Source: an uncultured cyanobacterium (GTDB lineage Bacteria; Cyanobacteriota; Cyanobacteriia; Cyanobacteriales; Nostocaceae). Taken from it: a stretch of 64,000 bases of DNA. The DNA lies in contig OY970166.1 in the NCBI GenBank assembly GCA_963706595.1, positions 4,800,001 to 4,864,000 of the forward strand, read 5' to 3'. Numbering within the stretch: position 1 is the stretch's first letter; the number at the start of each line of letters is the position of its first letter. Below, in pieces: positions 43,998 to 51,378 of the stretch. The position numbers were made by a program, and so were the translations under genes. Under the pieces are notes generated by a model. The model ran no database searches. It was not told where the DNA came from and saw nothing but the letters and a program-made list of their open reading frames with translations.

Positions 43998-45542
43998 TCA
44001 AACATGATTACTATCAAAGTTTTCAGCTTTAGGGCTATCACTCAAATTAGCCCGAAAATCTGATAAATTCTTGTGAACAGTTACCGTCTTTGGATGCTCA
44101 ACTCCTAAGACCTGCTGACAAATCTCTAAAGCTTGAATAAAAAGGAGTTCGGCTTGATCGTAGAGTCCCTGGGAATTGTAGAGTAATGCCAAGTTGTTAA
44201 GGCTGGTGGCGACATCGGGATGATTGTCCCCCCGCAGACGTTTTAAAATTTCTAAACCTTGAAGATACAGTGTTTCGGCTTGGTCGTAGCGTCCCTGGGA
44301 ATCGTATAGTCCTGCTAGGTTGTTGAGGCTAGCGGCGACATGGGGGTGATTGTCTCCCAGCAGGCGTTTTGAAAGTTCTAAACCTTGGATAAACAGGAGT
44401 TCGGCTTGGTCGTAGCGTCCTTGGGAATAGTAAAGTTCTGCCAAGTTATTGAGGCTGGTGGCGACATGGGGGTGATTGTCTCCCAACAGGCGTTTTGAAA
44501 GTTCTAAGCCTTGGATAAACAGGGGTTCAGCTTGGTCGTAGCGTCCTTGGGAATAGTAAAGTTCTGCCAGGTTGTTGAGGCTAGCGGCGACTAAGAGATG
44601 ATTGTCTCCTCGTAGGCGTGTTAAAAGTTCTAACGCTTGGAGAAACAAGGGTTCGGCTTTGTCGTAGCGTCCTTGGGAAGTGTAGAGATTTGCCAGATAA
44701 TTAAGACTAGTAGCTAAGTCGATTTTTAAACCTAAATCTGTTTGCAAATTAATCGCTTGTAAATAATATTTAATTGCTAGATTTTGTTCTTGTTGATAAT
44801 TTTGTGCTTCTCCTTTATCCAGTCGTCTTTGATAAATGCTTCCTAACTGCGAATATAAACTAATGAGTAATTTTGGATCTTGGTGATTATCTTGCTGTTC
44901 TAGCTGCTCAACTAACCTTTCTAAATCGGCAATTGGTAATCCCGAATATTTGCTATCATTTAAATTTGATAATTCACCATTTTCTAATATATTTCTGATT
45001 GGTTCAAACTCTTGAATATTAACAACATTTTTTGGTCTGCTGATAAAATGAAATACACCATTGCGCCAACTCCAAAAATCCGGGGCTTTTTTAATTAAGT
45101 TAACTAAAACCTGATTCGTTACCCATAGCACAATTGCAAAGGGAAATTCTCGCAGTGCTTCCCTTGTCCATTGCAAATAACCAAAAAACTTTTCTTGTTC
45201 AGATTGTGACTCGCCTAGCCTCAAAAAATAAAGTTGCTCCACACCCGTAACCGTAATTACTGCGGGTTGATGTTGCTGTAAATATTCTTCGCTTTCAACT
45301 AATTGCTGAATTGCAGCTTTTAAACTGGGTTCATTTCGTGCTAACATCACATGATAGCAACGGATATCTGGTTGTAACTCCGTTTGATAACGAGAAATAA
45401 TTTCTTGACGATAATTTTCATAATCGCAAACTGCAATTAACAAATTTAACCGTCCCACACCAGCTTCAATGGATACAATTAAATCATCATAAGCATCTTG
45501 ATTTTGCTCATCCAGATTATTTGAGGCTAGATTTGTCATCAT
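43998..45542 (-). CDS. TPR protein (five 42-aa repeats) with uncharacterised N-terminal domain
   Basis: (D/H)VA(T/A)SLNNLA.LY.SQGRYDQAE repeats. N-terminal domain contains APDFWSWR. Confidence 0.85.
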   Translation of the reverse strand: MMTNLASNNLDEQNQDAYDDLIVSIEAGVGRLNLLIAVCDYENYRQEIISRYQTELQPDIRCYHVMLARNEPSLKAAIQQLVESEEYLQQHQPAVITVTGVEQLYFLRLGESQSEQEKFFGYLQWTREALREFPFAIVLWVTNQVLVNLIKKAPDFWSWRNGVFHFISRPKNVVNIQEFEPIRNILENGELSNLNDSKYSGLPIADLERLVEQLEQQDNHQDPKLLISLYSQLGSIYQRRLDKGEAQNYQQEQNLAIKYYLQAINLQTDLGLKIDLATSLNYLANLYTSQGRYDKAEPLFLQALELLTRLRGDNHLLVAASLNNLAELYYSQGRYDQAEPLFIQGLELSKRLLGDNHPHVATSLNNLAELYYSQGRYDQAELLFIQGLELSKRLLGDNHPHVAASLNNLAGLYDSQGRYDQAETLYLQGLEILKRLRGDNHPDVATSLNNLALLYNSQGLYDQAELLFIQALEICQQVLGVEHPKTVTVHKNLSDFRANLSDSPKAENFDSNHV

Positions 45543-46822
45543 ATCAAACCCTCATCGCGCAACAATTCCACCACTATCGGATGTACGTCATACCAATTTT
45601 TACTATTGCGATATTCCAGAACGTACAAACCATGTAATAAATCGAGAAATGCTTGTTCTTTGGGATCTTCGGGTTTAGACTTTTGATAAGTATCTTGCAA
45701 TATTTTATATTCTGCACTACCCAATGGTAAAGAAAAGTCATTGCGAATTTTATTAATGGCTTGGTCTAAAATATCTGCATTAATTATAACAGTTCCGTCT
45801 GGTTGGCGACGAATTAACCGCAAACAAATTCGGCAACATTCGTTAGCAATCCGAATTAATTCCCGCAGAACCCCACCACTATTTAAAGCGATATTTTTGG
45901 CTATTTCCGGTTCAATTAAATCTGGTTGAATGCGTTTTTGGAGAATTTTACAGAGAATATCAAATGTTTCTTGACGTGGTTGTGCATCTGGCTGGCGACT
46001 ATCACCTTTAGCAAATAACTTTAAAACAGGCATAACCACAACTTGATCATTCGTTTCATTTTCAATAATTGGCTTGAGTGCAGTTTCTCTCAGTGCCGCA
46101 ATCGGAATTGTGTAAATAATCCGAAATCCTGGTAAACACAGGGCTTTAATGTTATCTTTATAAATATGATTAACAACACTCAAGTCAAGTTTATCTAAAT
46201 CATCAATAATTACTAAGATATCTTTTTTATATGCTGCTTGAATCGATGCCGCAATAATATTTAGCTGGGCAACTAATTCAGATATTTTGCGTTCAAATTC
46301 CTGTTTTATTTCGTAGCGAATTGTCGAATCTACTTTTAATTTAGTGCTAAGAACTTTTAATATACTGTTGTTGTTAGTTGCTTCAGCTTGAATGCTATTT
46401 TCTTCAGTGCGGGTGCGGGTAGTAAACCAGTTTTCTAAAGCATCTTTTGTAGATTGAGGAATATTTACTTGACGTGCTTCTGCCTCTAGCATTAAATTAA
46501 GGCCAATAGCAAACAAAATATTGATGTGATTCACATCAGACATTTCGATAGTGTCAGCAATGGAGAAAAACACCACAAAATACCTATCGTGAATATTGCG
46601 GCTAAATTCTGCCAGCAAAGTTGACTTACCACAACCACGATGTCCCGTAAAAATAATTTTGCCATCACTGCTAGGGCTATCTTCCACTAACTGTTCTAAT
46701 TCATCAATAGTATTCCCGCCATAATCAACCCGGAAATCTCTCAAATCTTTTTCCTGGGACAAAGGAAGCAATTCTAAGTTGCGGTAGGCTTCTTGAAAGG
46801 ACTTTAATAAATCTTTAGACAT
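45539..46822 (-). CDS. P-loop AAA/STAND-like ATPase
   Basis: Walker A GHRGCGKST, Walker B VIIDDLDK, SGGVLR, C-terminal VHP. ATGA overlap with the TPR gene. Confidence 0.85.
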   Translation of the reverse strand: MSKDLLKSFQEAYRNLELLPLSQEKDLRDFRVDYGGNTIDELEQLVEDSPSSDGKIIFTGHRGCGKSTLLAEFSRNIHDRYFVVFFSIADTIEMSDVNHINILFAIGLNLMLEAEARQVNIPQSTKDALENWFTTRTRTEENSIQAEATNNNSILKVLSTKLKVDSTIRYEIKQEFERKISELVAQLNIIAASIQAAYKKDILVIIDDLDKLDLSVVNHIYKDNIKALCLPGFRIIYTIPIAALRETALKPIIENETNDQVVVMPVLKLFAKGDSRQPDAQPRQETFDILCKILQKRIQPDLIEPEIAKNIALNSGGVLRELIRIANECCRICLRLIRRQPDGTVIINADILDQAINKIRNDFSLPLGSAEYKILQDTYQKSKPEDPKEQAFLDLLHGLYVLEYRNSKNWYDVHPIVVELLRDEGLI

Positions 46823-46995
46823 TGATATACAGCTTCTAAAATGGCTATCTATTCATATCATGGCGGCAAATGTCCTTAAAATAGTAATTTAATAAATTTA
46901 TTGTAGAACTCATATATATTCCTATTCCTGCTCCCTCTCCTTACTAAAGATAAGGTGTATACACAAATGATAGAAATTAATCCAAATCTTTTTAG

Positions 46996-47075
46996 GTAGG
47001 GTGTGTTGTCGCGTAGCGCAACGCACCATCCTATATCTTCGGTGCGTTAGGACTAACGTCCAGAACACACCCTAC
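46996..47075. repeat. REPIN-like pair of GTAG/CTAC palindromes
   Basis: GTAGGGTGTGTT...AACGCACC / GGTGCGTT...AACACACCCTAC. Confidence 0.7.
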
Positions 47076-47179
47076 TGGTGTGGCAAGCTTAAAATGTTGC
47101 ATTAGATTTTTGAGAAAATTGAGATAAATCAATGTTTTCTGCTTTTTACGTAATGCACTATTTTAAGCTTGCCACTCCA
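47076..47179. mobile_element. 104-bp MITE with about 29-bp imperfect TIRs and CTAC on both flanks
   Basis: TGGTGTGGCAAGCTTAAAATGTTGCATTA ... TAATGCACTATTTTAAGCTTGCCACTCCA. Confidence 0.78.
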
Positions 47180-47214
47180 CTACATTACTATCTATAAATA
47201 ACCTGTGCCTACCT

Positions 47215-47358
47215 ACTGAATTAGCGGTGAGAGGTTGACATACCTCCTCTTCCTGAAGGAGAGAGGATTCCTTAACGCTTCATTGGGTTGTGCTATCGAA
47301 ATAGTCTTACCATCCCTCGACGTTCGTTTAAAGTCTCCCAATGCCCTGTGGCGACTAT
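47215..47358 (-). ncRNA. Putative TnpB omegaRNA (reRNA) scaffold plus flank-derived guide
   Basis: Extended -10 TGgTAAAAT (47373-47365). Pairings CAUUGGG/CCCAAUG, CUAU-UUCG-AUAG, terminal RE hairpin, then GUCAA. Confidence 0.55.
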
Positions 47359-47440
47359 ATTCAAATTTTACCAGAAAGCCGTCCTAAAAGGCTTGTACTG
47401 AGCTTGCCGAAGTGACGGGGCTTGTATCCTATTATTCTCG
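47235..47440 (-). mobile_element. Non-autonomous IS200/IS605-derived element (left end + omegaRNA-like right end, no ORF)
   Basis: On the minus strand it starts after TTGAC, has LE hairpin GCCCCGTC..CTTTTAGGACGGC, and ends GAATCCTCTCTCCTTCAGGAAGAGGAGGTATGTCAA as in tnpB right ends. Confidence 0.72.
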
Positions 47441-47441
47441 G

Positions 47442-48005
47442 TCAATTCCTAGAGCAAGTTGAACCTGGAACATTTGCAGTTCTGAATTTATTACATTCTT
47501 TGGTAGTTGCACGCTCTAAAGACCAGTCATAGGGCTTATCAGAAGTGACAAGACCATTAGCCAGAGTTGTGAGTCGGAAGTGCGCCCCCCGAAAATTTGT
47601 CAACTGTAAATTGGCACCCTTCAAGTTAGCTGCTTCTAAATTGGCACTGATCAAACCAGCAAAAGACAAGTTAGCATTGGTCAATGATGCTGATTTTAAA
47701 TTTGTGCCTGTCAAAGAAGCCCCTGTTAAGTTGGCAGAATCTAGAACCGCAGCTTCTAAATTTGCGGATGTTAGGTCGGCACTGGTAAGATTCACTTGAG
47801 ATAAATTGGCACCCTTCAAGTTCGCACCTCGCAAATTTGCTCTCACCAGACTCATTTGAGTTAAATCAGCGCCACTCAAATCGCATCTAGGACAAGAGCC
47901 TGCTGTCTTCAACTGTTCCAAGTCTTGCTGGTTAACTGCAAAGGCTTGCTCTGTCAAACCCATACAAACTAACAGGGCGACACTAGCTACAATCTTGAGC
48001 TTCAT
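47442..48005 (-). CDS. Secreted pentapeptide repeat protein
   Basis: Signal peptide, CPRCDL, A(N/D)Lxx repeats. Confidence 0.9.
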   Translation of the reverse strand: MKLKIVASVALLVCMGLTEQAFAVNQQDLEQLKTAGSCPRCDLSGADLTQMSLVRANLRGANLKGANLSQVNLTSADLTSANLEAAVLDSANLTGASLTGTNLKSASLTNANLSFAGLISANLEAANLKGANLQLTNFRGAHFRLTTLANGLVTSDKPYDWSLERATTKECNKFRTANVPGSTCSRN

Positions 48006-48224
48006 AGTTTTACGGTGATTAACAAGGATGAAAAGTTATGCAATACTTAATACCACACTTAAACATATCCGAATTTTTCAGTAAATAACAAACATAAAGT
48101 GGTGGTGAAGAAACTATAAAAATCTGATAAATTCTAGTTATGGGACTACACAAAATTAGATTTAGGGTTTACAATAATTTTCGTAAGCAACTATACTGAA
48201 CCATTTATAGACTACCACATATGT

Positions 48225-48261
48225 GATCCCCCTAGCTTTTGTACCTTGAGCTAGGGGGATC
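48225..48261. terminator. Strong hairpin, likely terminator of the kinase gene
   Basis: GATCCCCCTAGCT...AGCTAGGGGGATC. Confidence 0.55.
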
Positions 48262-48370
48262 TTGTTTTGGGCATGGGGAGCAGGGTGCAGGGGAGCAGGG
48301 TGCAGGGAGCAGGGTGCAGGGTGAGTTGCAAATTAGTTTATCGGCTGCGTAACAACCTTTCCTTCCCAAA

Positions 48371-50131
48371 TCAACGCCAGCCTAAAAAGCGCAACCCAGG
48401 AACAATCAGGTAATAACTCACCCCTAACCAAAAACTCATCAAGAGACTCACCAAAGTGAAAAAAGCGATGGGTAAGGATAATGCCGACCAGAGGGGCTGT
48501 TCAGAAAATTGAAAAACAGTAGTTGGAAAGCCAAAAATAATTAACATTGCGAAGATAATTGCTGTCCCAAATGCGGCAACGACAGCATGAACTATGTGAT
48601 GGCTGCGAAAACCTATACTCAACGTGAACAGAAAAACTGCCACTAAAATTACTCCCAATAGTCCTTCGCCGCTATCTTTGGTGGTGATTAATTGCAAAAC
48701 TAACCAGCTCAACCCATAGCTGATCATACCCATGAGGGATGCTACTAAAAACCGTCGTCGTTGACCAAAACACCCCGATATTGTCAGTCCCCATGCAGTT
48801 CCTAAGCCCGCGCCGATGAATACTATAATTTCTGTTGCCATCACAGCTTGGCTATTACTCACTAATTCGGGTAGTTGACTAAAAATATATTCGGAGACTT
48901 GCTTTCCTAAAAAAGTTCGATAAGCTACGACAAACCCGATAATTGTACCTATACTAGCGCCCAAACCAGTTAGTAGCATTGCCCAAATTGTAGCTAAACA
49001 AGCTTGTAAGACTTGTAAAATTGCCTGAGCTATAAAAAGAACTGTTTTACCGATAGCTTTGGTGAGATTACCTAATGCTTGCTTAAGGGTTTGGATTAGG
49101 AGTGTAAATTTAGTGGAAATCTGTGTTGCTGTTTGCTGAACAGAGTCTTTGATTTGAGAAAATAACCCAGTCTGGGAAGTTGTGCCGATAATCTTAGTCA
49201 AGCGTTTCTGAATAATTTCTGCATTTACCGGACGCGATCGCACATCTTCGAGTATCATCTCATCTAGTAAATCTGCTAGTTTCGGGTTAACATTGACCCG
49301 ATTTCGCCAATGCAGAATCCCAGTTTGGGGGTCTTCCAACTCCGGCGGATATTTACCCGTAAGTAATTCAATCATTGTCCGACCGAGGGCATAAAAATCG
49401 GTCGCCGGGACTACATTACTACCTGTCATCTGTTCGGGGGGACTGTAACCAGAAGAATATAACTTAGTTGAACTAGACTCTCGACGCAGTTTAGCGGTGT
49501 TAAATTGTTTGACTCCACCAAAATCAATCAATACCAGTTCTTCTTTGTTTTCTCCTGGAGTCAGGGCTACAGGTGAGGAGGTTCGCAACATCAGATTAGA
49601 AGGTTTGATGTCTCGGTGAATAATCTGGCGTTTATGCAATTCCTGTAAAATTTTGACAGCCTGAGAAAACCAATTTAACACCAAATCCTCTGGACATCCT
49701 TGAGGATAATTTTGGACTCTGTGTTCTAGAGTCTGCCCATTAATTTTCTCCATCACCAGACAGGCTAGTAGATGTGGTTTAGGATTATTAGGTAAATTTA
49801 CCTGAAAATAACCATCAGATTCTACCCTGGGAACACCCGGATGGCGTAACTTAATTAAAACCTCTGCCTCTTGTGTAAATAATTCCAGTGCTTTTGGTGA
49901 ATTTTCCACCAAAACTTTGAGGACTTTCTCCTCTTGAGTTTTTTCATCCCAAACTGTGTAAATTTGGGCAAATCCTCCCGAACCCAAGGGTTGGAGAGGG
50001 ACATAACGATCTAGCAGCTGTAGCAGTGCGCCACAGCTGTTACAAAATTTGTTTCCCCAAGGTTGAGGATAAGGACGTTGACAATTAGGATTTATGCAGT
50101 GAACCGCACTCTTAGTGATGTGTGGACACAT
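48371..50131 (-). CDS. Ser/Thr protein kinase with N-terminal 4-Cys motif and C-terminal TM helices
   Basis: CINPNC..CNSCG, LGSGGFA, HRDIKPSN, DFG, multi-TM tail. Confidence 0.9.
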   Translation of the reverse strand: MCPHITKSAVHCINPNCQRPYPQPWGNKFCNSCGALLQLLDRYVPLQPLGSGGFAQIYTVWDEKTQEEKVLKVLVENSPKALELFTQEAEVLIKLRHPGVPRVESDGYFQVNLPNNPKPHLLACLVMEKINGQTLEHRVQNYPQGCPEDLVLNWFSQAVKILQELHKRQIIHRDIKPSNLMLRTSSPVALTPGENKEELVLIDFGGVKQFNTAKLRRESSSTKLYSSGYSPPEQMTGSNVVPATDFYALGRTMIELLTGKYPPELEDPQTGILHWRNRVNVNPKLADLLDEMILEDVRSRPVNAEIIQKRLTKIIGTTSQTGLFSQIKDSVQQTATQISTKFTLLIQTLKQALGNLTKAIGKTVLFIAQAILQVLQACLATIWAMLLTGLGASIGTIIGFVVAYRTFLGKQVSEYIFSQLPELVSNSQAVMATEIIVFIGAGLGTAWGLTISGCFGQRRRFLVASLMGMISYGLSWLVLQLITTKDSGEGLLGVILVAVFLFTLSIGFRSHHIVHAVVAAFGTAIIFAMLIIFGFPTTVFQFSEQPLWSALSLPIAFFTLVSLLMSFWLGVSYYLIVPGLRFLGWR

Positions 50132-50352
50132 TCCCTACAATACAAAGGCTGAACTGATTTTAACCTTTACCCTTGCCTTTGCGGCTTGAGATGGAAATTT
50201 TCCGCTAAATTCTAAAGTTTTGCTTTAGTTGTGAGATTACCGAAAGTCAGGTTAAAGTCTATAACTGGCAGTGATCACAGATGCGATCGCCTGTCTAAGA
50301 TGCAAGCTATTATAAATTGGAAAAATATGCAGCATACAGCCTGAGATTTAAA

Positions 50353-51378
50353 ATGAAAATAGCAGTTTTCAGTACCAAGGCCTATGATCGACAGTTTTTA
50401 GAGGCTGCAAATTCTCCCGCCCAACATGAGTTGGTTTTTTTTGAACCCCGCTTAAGTCGGAGTACCGCCATCTTAGCTGCTGGGTTTCCGGCTGTTTGCG
50501 TATTTGTGCATGATTTGGTTGATGCGCCCACTTTAAAAATTCTCGCTTCTGGGGGAACTCGCCTAATTGTTCTCCGGTGTGCCGGATTTAATAATGTCGA
50601 TTTACAAGCCGCAGGCGATTTGGGGATCAAAGTTGTGCGTGTTCCTGCTTATTCACCCTATGGAGTAGCAGAACACGCTGTAGGATTAATTTTAAGCCTC
50701 AATCGCAAAATTCCTCGTGCTTATAACCGCGTCCGGGAAGGTAATTTTTCGCTCACAGGACTGTTGGGATTTAACTTGAATGGTCGCACAGTCGGGATTA
50801 TTGGTACGGGTAAAATCGGTCTGATTTTGGGACAGATTATGAAGGGTTTTGGCTGCAATATACTTGCTTATGATGTATATCGCAACGCCGAATTAGAGAA
50901 ACTGGGCGGAAAGTATGTAGAGTTGCCTGAGTTATTTGCTAACTCTGATATTATTTCTTTACATTGTCCCCTGATGCCTGAAACTCATCATTTAATCAAT
51001 GCTGAGTCTATAGCCCAAATGAAGCAGAGAGTGATGTTAATTAACACCAGTCGAGGAGCGTTGATTGATACTCAAGCTGTGATTGAAGGTTTGAAGTCAG
51101 GCAAAATAGGCTTTTTGGGCGTGGATGTCTACGAACAAGAATCAGATTTATTCTTTGAGGATTTGTCTGCTGAAATTATCCAGGATGATGTTTTTCAACG
51201 CTTGACAACATTTCCCAACGTATTGATCACTGGGCATCAAGCCTTTTTTACAGAAGAAGCTCTCTATAATATTGCTGAAACAACTTTTGCTAATATTGCC
51301 GATATTGAACAGGGTCGTGCTTGTCCCAATGAGTTGATTTATCAACCAGAAGTTGCTGCTAAGGCGCTAGTTAGTTAA
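50353..51378 (+). CDS. ldhA: D-lactate dehydrogenase (2-hydroxyacid dehydrogenase)
   Basis: LRCAGFNNVD, RVPAYSP, GTGKIG, NTSRG, TGHQAF. ATG at 50353. Confidence 0.9.
   Translation: MKIAVFSTKAYDRQFLEAANSPAQHELVFFEPRLSRSTAILAAGFPAVCVFVHDLVDAPTLKILASGGTRLIVLRCAGFNNVDLQAAGDLGIKVVRVPAYSPYGVAEHAVGLILSLNRKIPRAYNRVREGNFSLTGLLGFNLNGRTVGIIGTGKIGLILGQIMKGFGCNILAYDVYRNAELEKLGGKYVELPELFANSDIISLHCPLMPETHHLINAESIAQMKQRVMLINTSRGALIDTQAVIEGLKSGKIGFLGVDVYEQESDLFFEDLSAEIIQDDVFQRLTTFPNVLITGHQAFFTEEALYNIAETTFANIADIEQGRACPNELIYQPEVAAKALVS

Follow-up and report, generated by a model that had tools for sequence, protein, structure and literature searches.

Several described systems come close to the locus reported here, and are introduced below from the accessible parts of their reports. 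PATEs related to ISGst1 and ISGst5 in Geobacillus stearothermophilus combine IS605-family ends with the lack of any protein gene, and often encode omegaRNAs with which TnpB would act in trans (bioRxiv 10.1101/2023.03.14.532601). For tnpB-bearing elements, a homing cycle has been described in which the scar left by excision is cut by TnpB and the element returns through recombination (bioRxiv 10.1101/2023.03.14.532601; PMC8612924), and a PATE with IStron ends is also in print (bioRxiv 10.1101/2023.11.20.567912). OMEGA systems include standalone omegaRNAs, mobilised loci for a guide RNA that have neither effector nor transposase; these work in trans, their role being stated as unknown (PMC10691335). 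The omegaRNA, or reRNA, of ISDra2 has 116 nt, four stems, a pseudoknot with the bases before the guide, and a 16-nt guide taken from the flank (PMC8612924, PMC10097598). In IS608, a 4-nt target is read by a DNA guide in the left end (PMC5934647). Lastly, TldR RNA-guided repressors use a guide RNA of TnpB type.

We analysed a 64,000-nucleotide stretch of DNA (the window) from an uncultured cyanobacterium of the Nostocaceae (assembly GCA_963706595.1, contig OY970166.1, positions 4,800,001 to 4,864,000). It carries an ORF-less element that resembles all of these systems in part. Like the Geobacillus PATEs, the element has IS605-family ends and no protein gene; whereas the accessible text on those PATEs reports no promoter, covariation or expression, a positioned -10 and a fold are conserved here across many cyanobacterial families. 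It shares with standalone omegaRNAs the absence of effector and transposase but is of TnpB type, with the guide 3' of the scaffold. The standalone omegaRNAs that have been tested are reportedly of IscB type. The four-stem layout of the ISDra2 RNA, with a possible pseudoknot, recurs in a scaffold of 121 nt; that RNA, as far as its accessible description goes, differs in overlapping tnpB and in its target, TTGAT rather than TGAC.

Standalone omegaRNAs and omegaRNA-bearing PATEs are already in print. A literature search did not find a description of a promoter-bearing family in cyanobacteria, nor of the positioned promoter, the breadth or the sister class with an extra RNA domain reported below; most subscription journals, ISfinder and bioRxiv supplements lay outside that search, which is not proof of absence. 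We consider it probable, at roughly 65%, that this is a non-autonomous IS605 element with its own promoter and omegaRNA, whose excision scar is cut by TnpB acting in trans, recombination then restoring the element. If true, it would be about the smallest transposon parasite that exploits both enzymes of its host transposon in trans. The family makes the role of standalone omegaRNAs testable, offering a 206-bp unit, a predicted promoter, a defined target and a natural empty allele, with candidate TnpA and TnpB in the same genome, and its natural alignment sketches the minimal scaffold of a TnpB clade that targets TGAC.

The element, its copies and its parents

The minus-strand features that a sequence-only reading of the window had proposed were all found where it had placed them (Table 1), and an ORF check confirmed that the element holds neither tnpA nor tnpB. 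GAATCC occupies 47270-47265 and the terminal TCAA 47238-47235. The stop codon TGA of the pentapeptide gene (47444-47442) falls within the TTGAC motif, and no intrinsic terminator was found in 46900-47700. With subterminal hairpins, DNA guides and cleavage motifs at both ends, no protein-coding gene and a related autonomous element in existence, the element has the hallmarks of a PATE. Just downstream, 46930-47190 holds other multicopy palindromic repeats, and 46700-47234 matches the genome 118 times.

Table 1. Features of the element and its surroundings (window coordinates).
Feature	Position	Strand	Remarks
ORF-less IS605-group element (PATE)	47440-47235	minus	206 bp; inserted after TGAC, without target duplication
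Target motif TTGAC	47441..47445	minus	core TGAC 47444-47441, not part of the element; site of TnpA cleavage, presumed TAM of TnpB
Pentapeptide-repeat gene, 187 aa	47442..48005	minus	bystander; read-through could also supply RNA
Left end	47378..47424	minus	DNA guide CAAG 47424-47421; subterminal hairpin, arms 47420-47414 and 47383-47378
23-nt small repeat	47391..47413	minus	in left-end hairpin loop; present in 5 of 9 complete copies
Extended -10 (TG-G-TAAAAT), TGGTAAAAT	47365..47373	minus	no -35; predicted start near 47358
tnpB 3'-end vestige	47293..47361	minus	frame reads NIVATGHWETLNERRGMVRLFR-stop
omegaRNA scaffold, 121 nt	47235..47355	minus	layout compared with ISDra2 omegaRNA
Stem 1	47355-47333	minus	C-G/G-C swaps in alignment A2
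Pseudoknot	47345-47341 with 47241-47237	minus	loop GGCAU with AUGUC; pairing possible
Stem 2	47324-47320 with 47278-47274	minus	
Stem 3a	47316-47311 with 47290-47285	minus	
Stem 3b	47304-47293	minus	
Right end	47235..47270	minus	DNA guide GAAT; hairpin 47267-47245 (stem 4); cleavage site TCAA
Guide-forming flank CCTCTCACCGCTAATTCAGT	47234-47215	minus	first 16 nt 47234-47219; belonged to the host site before insertion

The earlier picture of a stand-alone gene gave way to that of one copy in a mobile multicopy family. A whole-genome BLAST search recovered the sibling copies that had been envisaged, with nine further loci of the source genome (G000) matching at E≤1e-40, well outside what chance would give; the inventory comprises nine complete copies and one fragment of the right end, together with two intact tnpA+tnpB elements whose ends match. 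The complete copies have both ends in common and lie in unrelated flanks; copies are at 96-99% identity. All nine stand behind TGAC (TTGAC 5, CTGAC 3, ATGAC 1), and the fifth target base among 68 parsed relatives is T in 42, C in 13, G in 8 and A in 5; of the proposed TTGAC target, the TGAC core stands, while the fifth base is preferred yet variable. TGAC is also listed as the TAM of ISAba30. The 3' terminus is TCAA in eight copies and TCAC in one, the copy at 320861, which also has a damaged -10. The left-end hairpin is present as claimed, apart from a 23-nt loop insert (47413-47391) that has no counterpart in four of the nine complete copies.

The right end is identical to that of IS608 (GAAT/TCAA), and in both elements the left-end guide reads a 4-nt target, TTAC with guide AAAG in IS608 and TGAC with guide CAAG here; IS608 further differs in carrying tnpA and tnpB (PMC5934647, accessible part). 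Target and left-end guide co-vary among 84 parsed loci out of at least 115 listed, with TGAC/CAAG in 55, TTAT/AAAA in 12 and TTAC/AAAG in one. This likeness and the near-identity of the copies suggest that the element was moved by TnpA in trans.

Two minor features of the copies deserve mention. The motif of the 23-nt repeat has 12 matches in the genome, six of them inside another palindromic repeat. A 21-23 nt form sits in the loops of hairpins, those of IS605 left ends as well as those of another palindromic repeat (G000 223576, 2084934, 2611017, 3651431, 4394400, 4484931 and 5373031), is present or absent at the same site (window versus L177; G000:4362202 versus L008) and is nested in itself in L003 and L005. 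In addition, G000:3728605-3728722 and 3115807-3115918 are right-end-only fragments, one of ORF-less and one of parent type, that start inside the scaffold directly after TTGAC and may have arisen when an internal site was cleaved.

The pentapeptide gene was found in four of ten genomes of the genus at E≤1e-87. One of these, G001 (locus L178), supplied the empty site that had been sought in relatives, TTGAA being joined directly to GTTCTCACCGCTAATT. The predicted guide equals this empty-site flank, as had been proposed. At the same site, G006 has a complete element next to a different flank, G008 a remnant of the left end and G007 nothing; given these differences, the site is polymorphic and the guide is host sequence of the pre-insertion site. 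The nine copies and the empty site agree in showing that insertion takes place 3' of a 4-5 nt motif and duplicates no target sequence, as for PATEs, and show that the element is mobile. The empty allele of G001 differs from the window in the final base of the target and in guide bases 1 and 2, positions that would permit escape from cutting, in this one case. In the relatives, the pentapeptide gene is followed by what we take, from its sequence, to be an amidohydrolase-like gene; in G000 this gene lies about 63 kb away (G000:4783647), and an ATPase and TPR pair (window 45539-47200) stands in its place.

Relatives of the element are widespread. DNA matches, partial ones included, occur in 37 of 61 genomes, and scaffold-model matches at E≤1e-12 in 28 of the 61. 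A search with a scaffold 5'-end pattern returned at least 115 loci, 35 of them with 300-nt flanks only; 80 named rows among those listed are cyanobacteria of many families, except for one bin labelled Acidobacteria. Among the at least 115 listed loci, just two, L090 and L122, have a tnpB immediately upstream, and the other 113 are ORF-less; sampling by scaffold pattern is blind to elements without a scaffold, and one such deleted copy was seen (L026). L023, L024, L028 and L183 show the same left end and -10 followed by other non-coding sequences without a scaffold-model match. Seven viral contigs carry ORF-less copies.

The two tnpA+tnpB elements, at G000:449015 and 675526, lie behind TTGAC, and their left end matches that of the window at 92% over 37 nt. 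Their tnpA (132 aa, NF033573) and tnpB (NF040570) score above cut-off, and among 39 TnpB zinc-finger matches in the genome they are the best match at both ends. The IS605-type origin with loss of tnpB that had been proposed is borne out, as is a tnpB-bearing relative with both ends in common, which had itself been sought as a parent. The scaffold derives from the tnpB 3' end plus the right end, as seen from the vestigial frame and from homologous scaffolds behind tnpB. In the family model, the parents score 90 and 89 bits, the ten ORF-less loci 93-143 and four other tnpB loci 31-42. A closer parent type exists elsewhere in L090, whose TnpB C-terminus KVATGHWETINERREIVSLVY is matched by the window vestige: the protein ends KVATGHWETINERR, and the vestigial frame reads IVATGHWETLNERR. 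A plasmid collection yielded one record, tnpB-borne (NC_019699, annotated tnpA+tnpB).

Scaffold fold and promoter-like motif

No Rfam match was found in window 44000-51000 (best E 1.6), and the single RNA folded alone is no better than shuffles (z -0.51), so that the case rests on comparison, by which alone the structure is visible. Alignment A1 joins the window to 66 of 92 distinct scaffolds (110-128 nt), thinned by hand to 65 ORF-less and 2 tnpB-borne rows. It has 95.8% paired cells and double changes in 17 of 28 pairs; none of 500 shuffles scored as high, bearing in mind that related sequences can beat shuffles without structure, and slid controls reached 29-47% paired. The hand-chosen alignment A2 (21 ORF-less and 15 tnpB-borne rows) is 97.0% paired, with covariation in 19 of 32 pairs. 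It resolves the 5' end, where stem 1 swaps C-G for G-C in 13 and 7 of 36 rows, and with the tnpB-borne scaffolds added, stem 1 plus pseudoknot fits with compensatory changes. The pseudoknot next to the guide consists of five pairs, 100% pairable, with no double change in the 36 rows. The comparative check returned a covarying four-stem scaffold of the kind found in TnpB omegaRNAs, in line with the omegaRNA-type scaffold that the sequence-only reading had proposed. ORF-less elements retain some 85 nt of scaffold in addition to the right-end hairpin, and this part covaries; the scaffold tree, with 18 of 77 branches starred, has too little support to place the covariation after tnpB loss.

One of the helices drawn in that reading, GGGCAUUGGGAG/CCCAAUG, was ruled out as a conserved fold. 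It is 84.6% paired with no double change, and all 500 shuffles scored as high; double changes could not appear because its 5' side is fixed by the search pattern, but the strand with which its 3' side does covary is a different one. RNAalifold suggested long-range GAC/GUC and GCC/GGC helices, and these, which never showed a double change, were also discarded.

The extended -10 fared better and proved to be conserved and positioned just upstream of the scaffold. We compared 71 distinct upstream 30-mers from 89 listed loci, with tnpB-borne loci and the long class described below set aside. TAnnnT ends 5-13 nt before the scaffold in 61 of the 71, counts to which kin contribute non-independently, and at 7-9 nt in 58 of these 61; TGnTAnnnT occurs in 40. 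In 2000 letter shuffles, the corresponding counts averaged 20.1 (maximum 34) and 1.6 (maximum 7). Fourteen different hexamers occur, in which positions 3-5 vary and positions 1, 2 and 6 are kept. This is the positional pattern expected for a selected -10 with a start at the first bases of the scaffold, here about 47358. A -35 search found no -35/-10 pair. In the parents, the corresponding place holds a similar TGATATATT, there the antisense of the tnpA codons EYI, and the tnpB-only L090 has TAGTATAAT; the promoter would appear to have originated on the antisense strand of the tnpA tail.

Conservation of fold and -10 among the relatives bears on a rival account, in which the element is a plain mobile PATE whose DNA ends alone matter, promoter and scaffold being inherited passengers renewed by repeated deletion. 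Under that account, the TAnnnT already present in the parents at the -10 position, the youth of many copies, their persistence in genomes where the cognate TnpB was not found and the unremarkable single-sequence fold would all be natural. It fits poorly with the predominance of ORF-less loci within the scaffold subtype (113 of at least 115 listed) and with the retention of -10 positions 1, 2 and 6 after release from coding. Moreover, relative to the local tnpB elements, stem 1 differs by the compensatory changes counted above, so the ORF-less elements are not fresh deletions of local parents. We judge a purely passenger scaffold improbable, and continue with an element that would make its own guide RNA.

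RNA libraries were also consulted: 20 runs were listed, none with half of the words, and four were examined as contigs. Two metatranscriptomes gave five contigs on the element; the RNA-library contigs contain copies from relatives and are silent on start, strand and level. Three of the contigs stop in the 5' part of the scaffold, at 47335, 47338 and 47354, and one of these runs into a flank identical to that of copy G000:5027496; another metatranscriptome contig spans the whole element and both flanks. Since contigs break at repeats, we counted none of this as evidence of expression. Two culture transcriptomes cover only the left end and neighbouring repeats.

Guides, resident TnpB and proposed homing

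Guides of the family are variable and flank-derived, as in TnpB omegaRNAs, with 126 distinct guides among 141 matches, some loci having been fetched twice. We compared 12 guides from the source genome (10 ORF-less, 2 from parents) with 39,069 genomic TGAC sites. No guide had another match above 12/16, the best second site being 12/16 for all 12, whereas 76 of 299 random 20-mers reached at least 13. Diversity without other genomic matches is what one would expect of self-homing guides.

The TnpB genes of the clade in the source genome (G000:449500-450714 and 676011-677225) were the 2 of 39 zinc-finger matches whose RuvC residues were examined; in both, D, E and D align with those of ISDra2 TnpB, an alignment by which the resident TnpB is judged catalytically intact. 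Their own scaffold is identical to that of the window at only 81 of 121 positions, so loading of the window RNA is not certain. Across genomes, ORF-less-type scaffolds (best scaffold at least 110 bits) occur in 21 of 61. An uninterrupted clade TnpB at 70% identity or more is found in 10 of these 21 and in 2 of the other 40, kin among the genomes not being independent. In 3 of the 21 it is broken or partial, and in 8, including the single-contig G003, none was found at E≤1e-60.

The probable mechanism is a cycle built from two modules. In the first, the DNA ends would be used by a Y1 TnpA from elsewhere, with peel-and-paste transfer to TGAC sites. In the second, the extended -10 would start an RNA of about 140 nt at the 5' end of the scaffold, ending in about 16 nt of flank, which the clade's TnpB, catalytically intact and encoded elsewhere, would take up in trans. 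TnpB would then cut TGAC plus guide, the scar left by excision, and recombination would copy the element back. As to history, we speculate that the -10 arose antisense in the tnpA tail and drove tnpB in tnpB-only elements, until deletion of tnpB brought it to the scaffold.

The guide comparison speaks equally to a host-domesticated RNA serving defence, or else a nuclease-dead TldR as the sequence-only reading had entertained. In favour of this, a few copies whose left ends are lost or damaged retain -10 and scaffold, and their flank recurs unchanged in several records (L039/L145; copy 4362202, L008 and L143; the viral contigs L228-230 and L232). At the window locus, by comparison, the site is empty, flanked differently, reduced to a remnant or absent in the four genus relatives with the pentapeptide gene; none of the 12 guides matches another genomic site above 12/16, and the catalytic triad is intact in the two cognate TnpBs. 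Neither a nuclease-dead TnpB of the clade nor a conserved guide with a second genomic target, features that would liken the element to the accessible descriptions of TldR systems, was found in the source genome. A TldR-type role is therefore unlikely, and we regard domestication for either purpose as very improbable indeed. Of the sequence-level findings that the sequence-only reading had named as speaking against itself, a lack of tnpB-bearing relatives with these ends and a lack of omegaRNA-type covariation, neither was encountered.

The viral contigs L228, L229, L230 and L232 share one common insertion that lacks the 5' arm of the left end and keeps -10 and scaffold; this insertion is a candidate immobilised guide.

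A longer class with an additional RNA domain

In 24 of the at least 115 listed loci, 110-190 extra nt lie between -10 and scaffold. By eye, this long class (L034, L041, L058, L060, L108, L138 and L235-L285) falls into at least three subtypes, some with an extra hairpin in the scaffold. A pattern for the extra domain of one subtype, drawn without the scaffold, found 51 loci in metagenomes. Among the 45 of these with 300 nt downstream, the domain is followed by the scaffold in 42 and by the right end in 43, and in none by a cognate tnpB; two extra-domain loci have a cognate tnpB upstream. No Rfam match for the domain was found in ten related loci, which gave only a tRNA, or in six more, which gave none. 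Covariation within it is modest (3 of 13 pairs, the 5' half being fixed by the search pattern), and it was not found in G000. The sister class points to an RNA domain absent from Rfam 15.

The weak scaffold tree does not separate the short from the long forms, which interleave. One reading, speculative and rather unlikely, is that ORF-less elements are old, phylum-wide mobile RNA genes with a long evolution separate from tnpB, whose short form was repeatedly trimmed from a two-domain RNA. Its 5' domain of 110-190 nt, with conserved unpaired motifs, no Rfam match and occurrence only inside ORF-less IS605 ends, would have its own activity beyond self-homing, such as guide-RNA processing, recruitment of another protein or regulation of TnpB.

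In a related rival account, the RNA would be made and bind TnpB or another factor, its chief role being to regulate the parent element or serve as a decoy, or it would have some further activity, the short form being trimmed. The ten ORF-less scaffolds facing two cognate tnpB genes in the source genome would suit a decoy, and the conserved extra domain, with its regular scaffold and right end, no cognate tnpB and no Rfam match, would suit a further activity. That domain is, however, missing from G000 and its covariation is thin, while homing alone accounts for the short form. We hold this rival account to be quite improbable and retain homing as the preferred reading for the element in the window.

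One long-class locus, L237, joins a tnpB element and an ORF-less unit end to end, the 3' scaffold halves of the two being nearly identical. At L237:1430-1500, the right end of the tnpB element is joined directly to the left end of the ORF-less unit, like the junction of a transposon circle.
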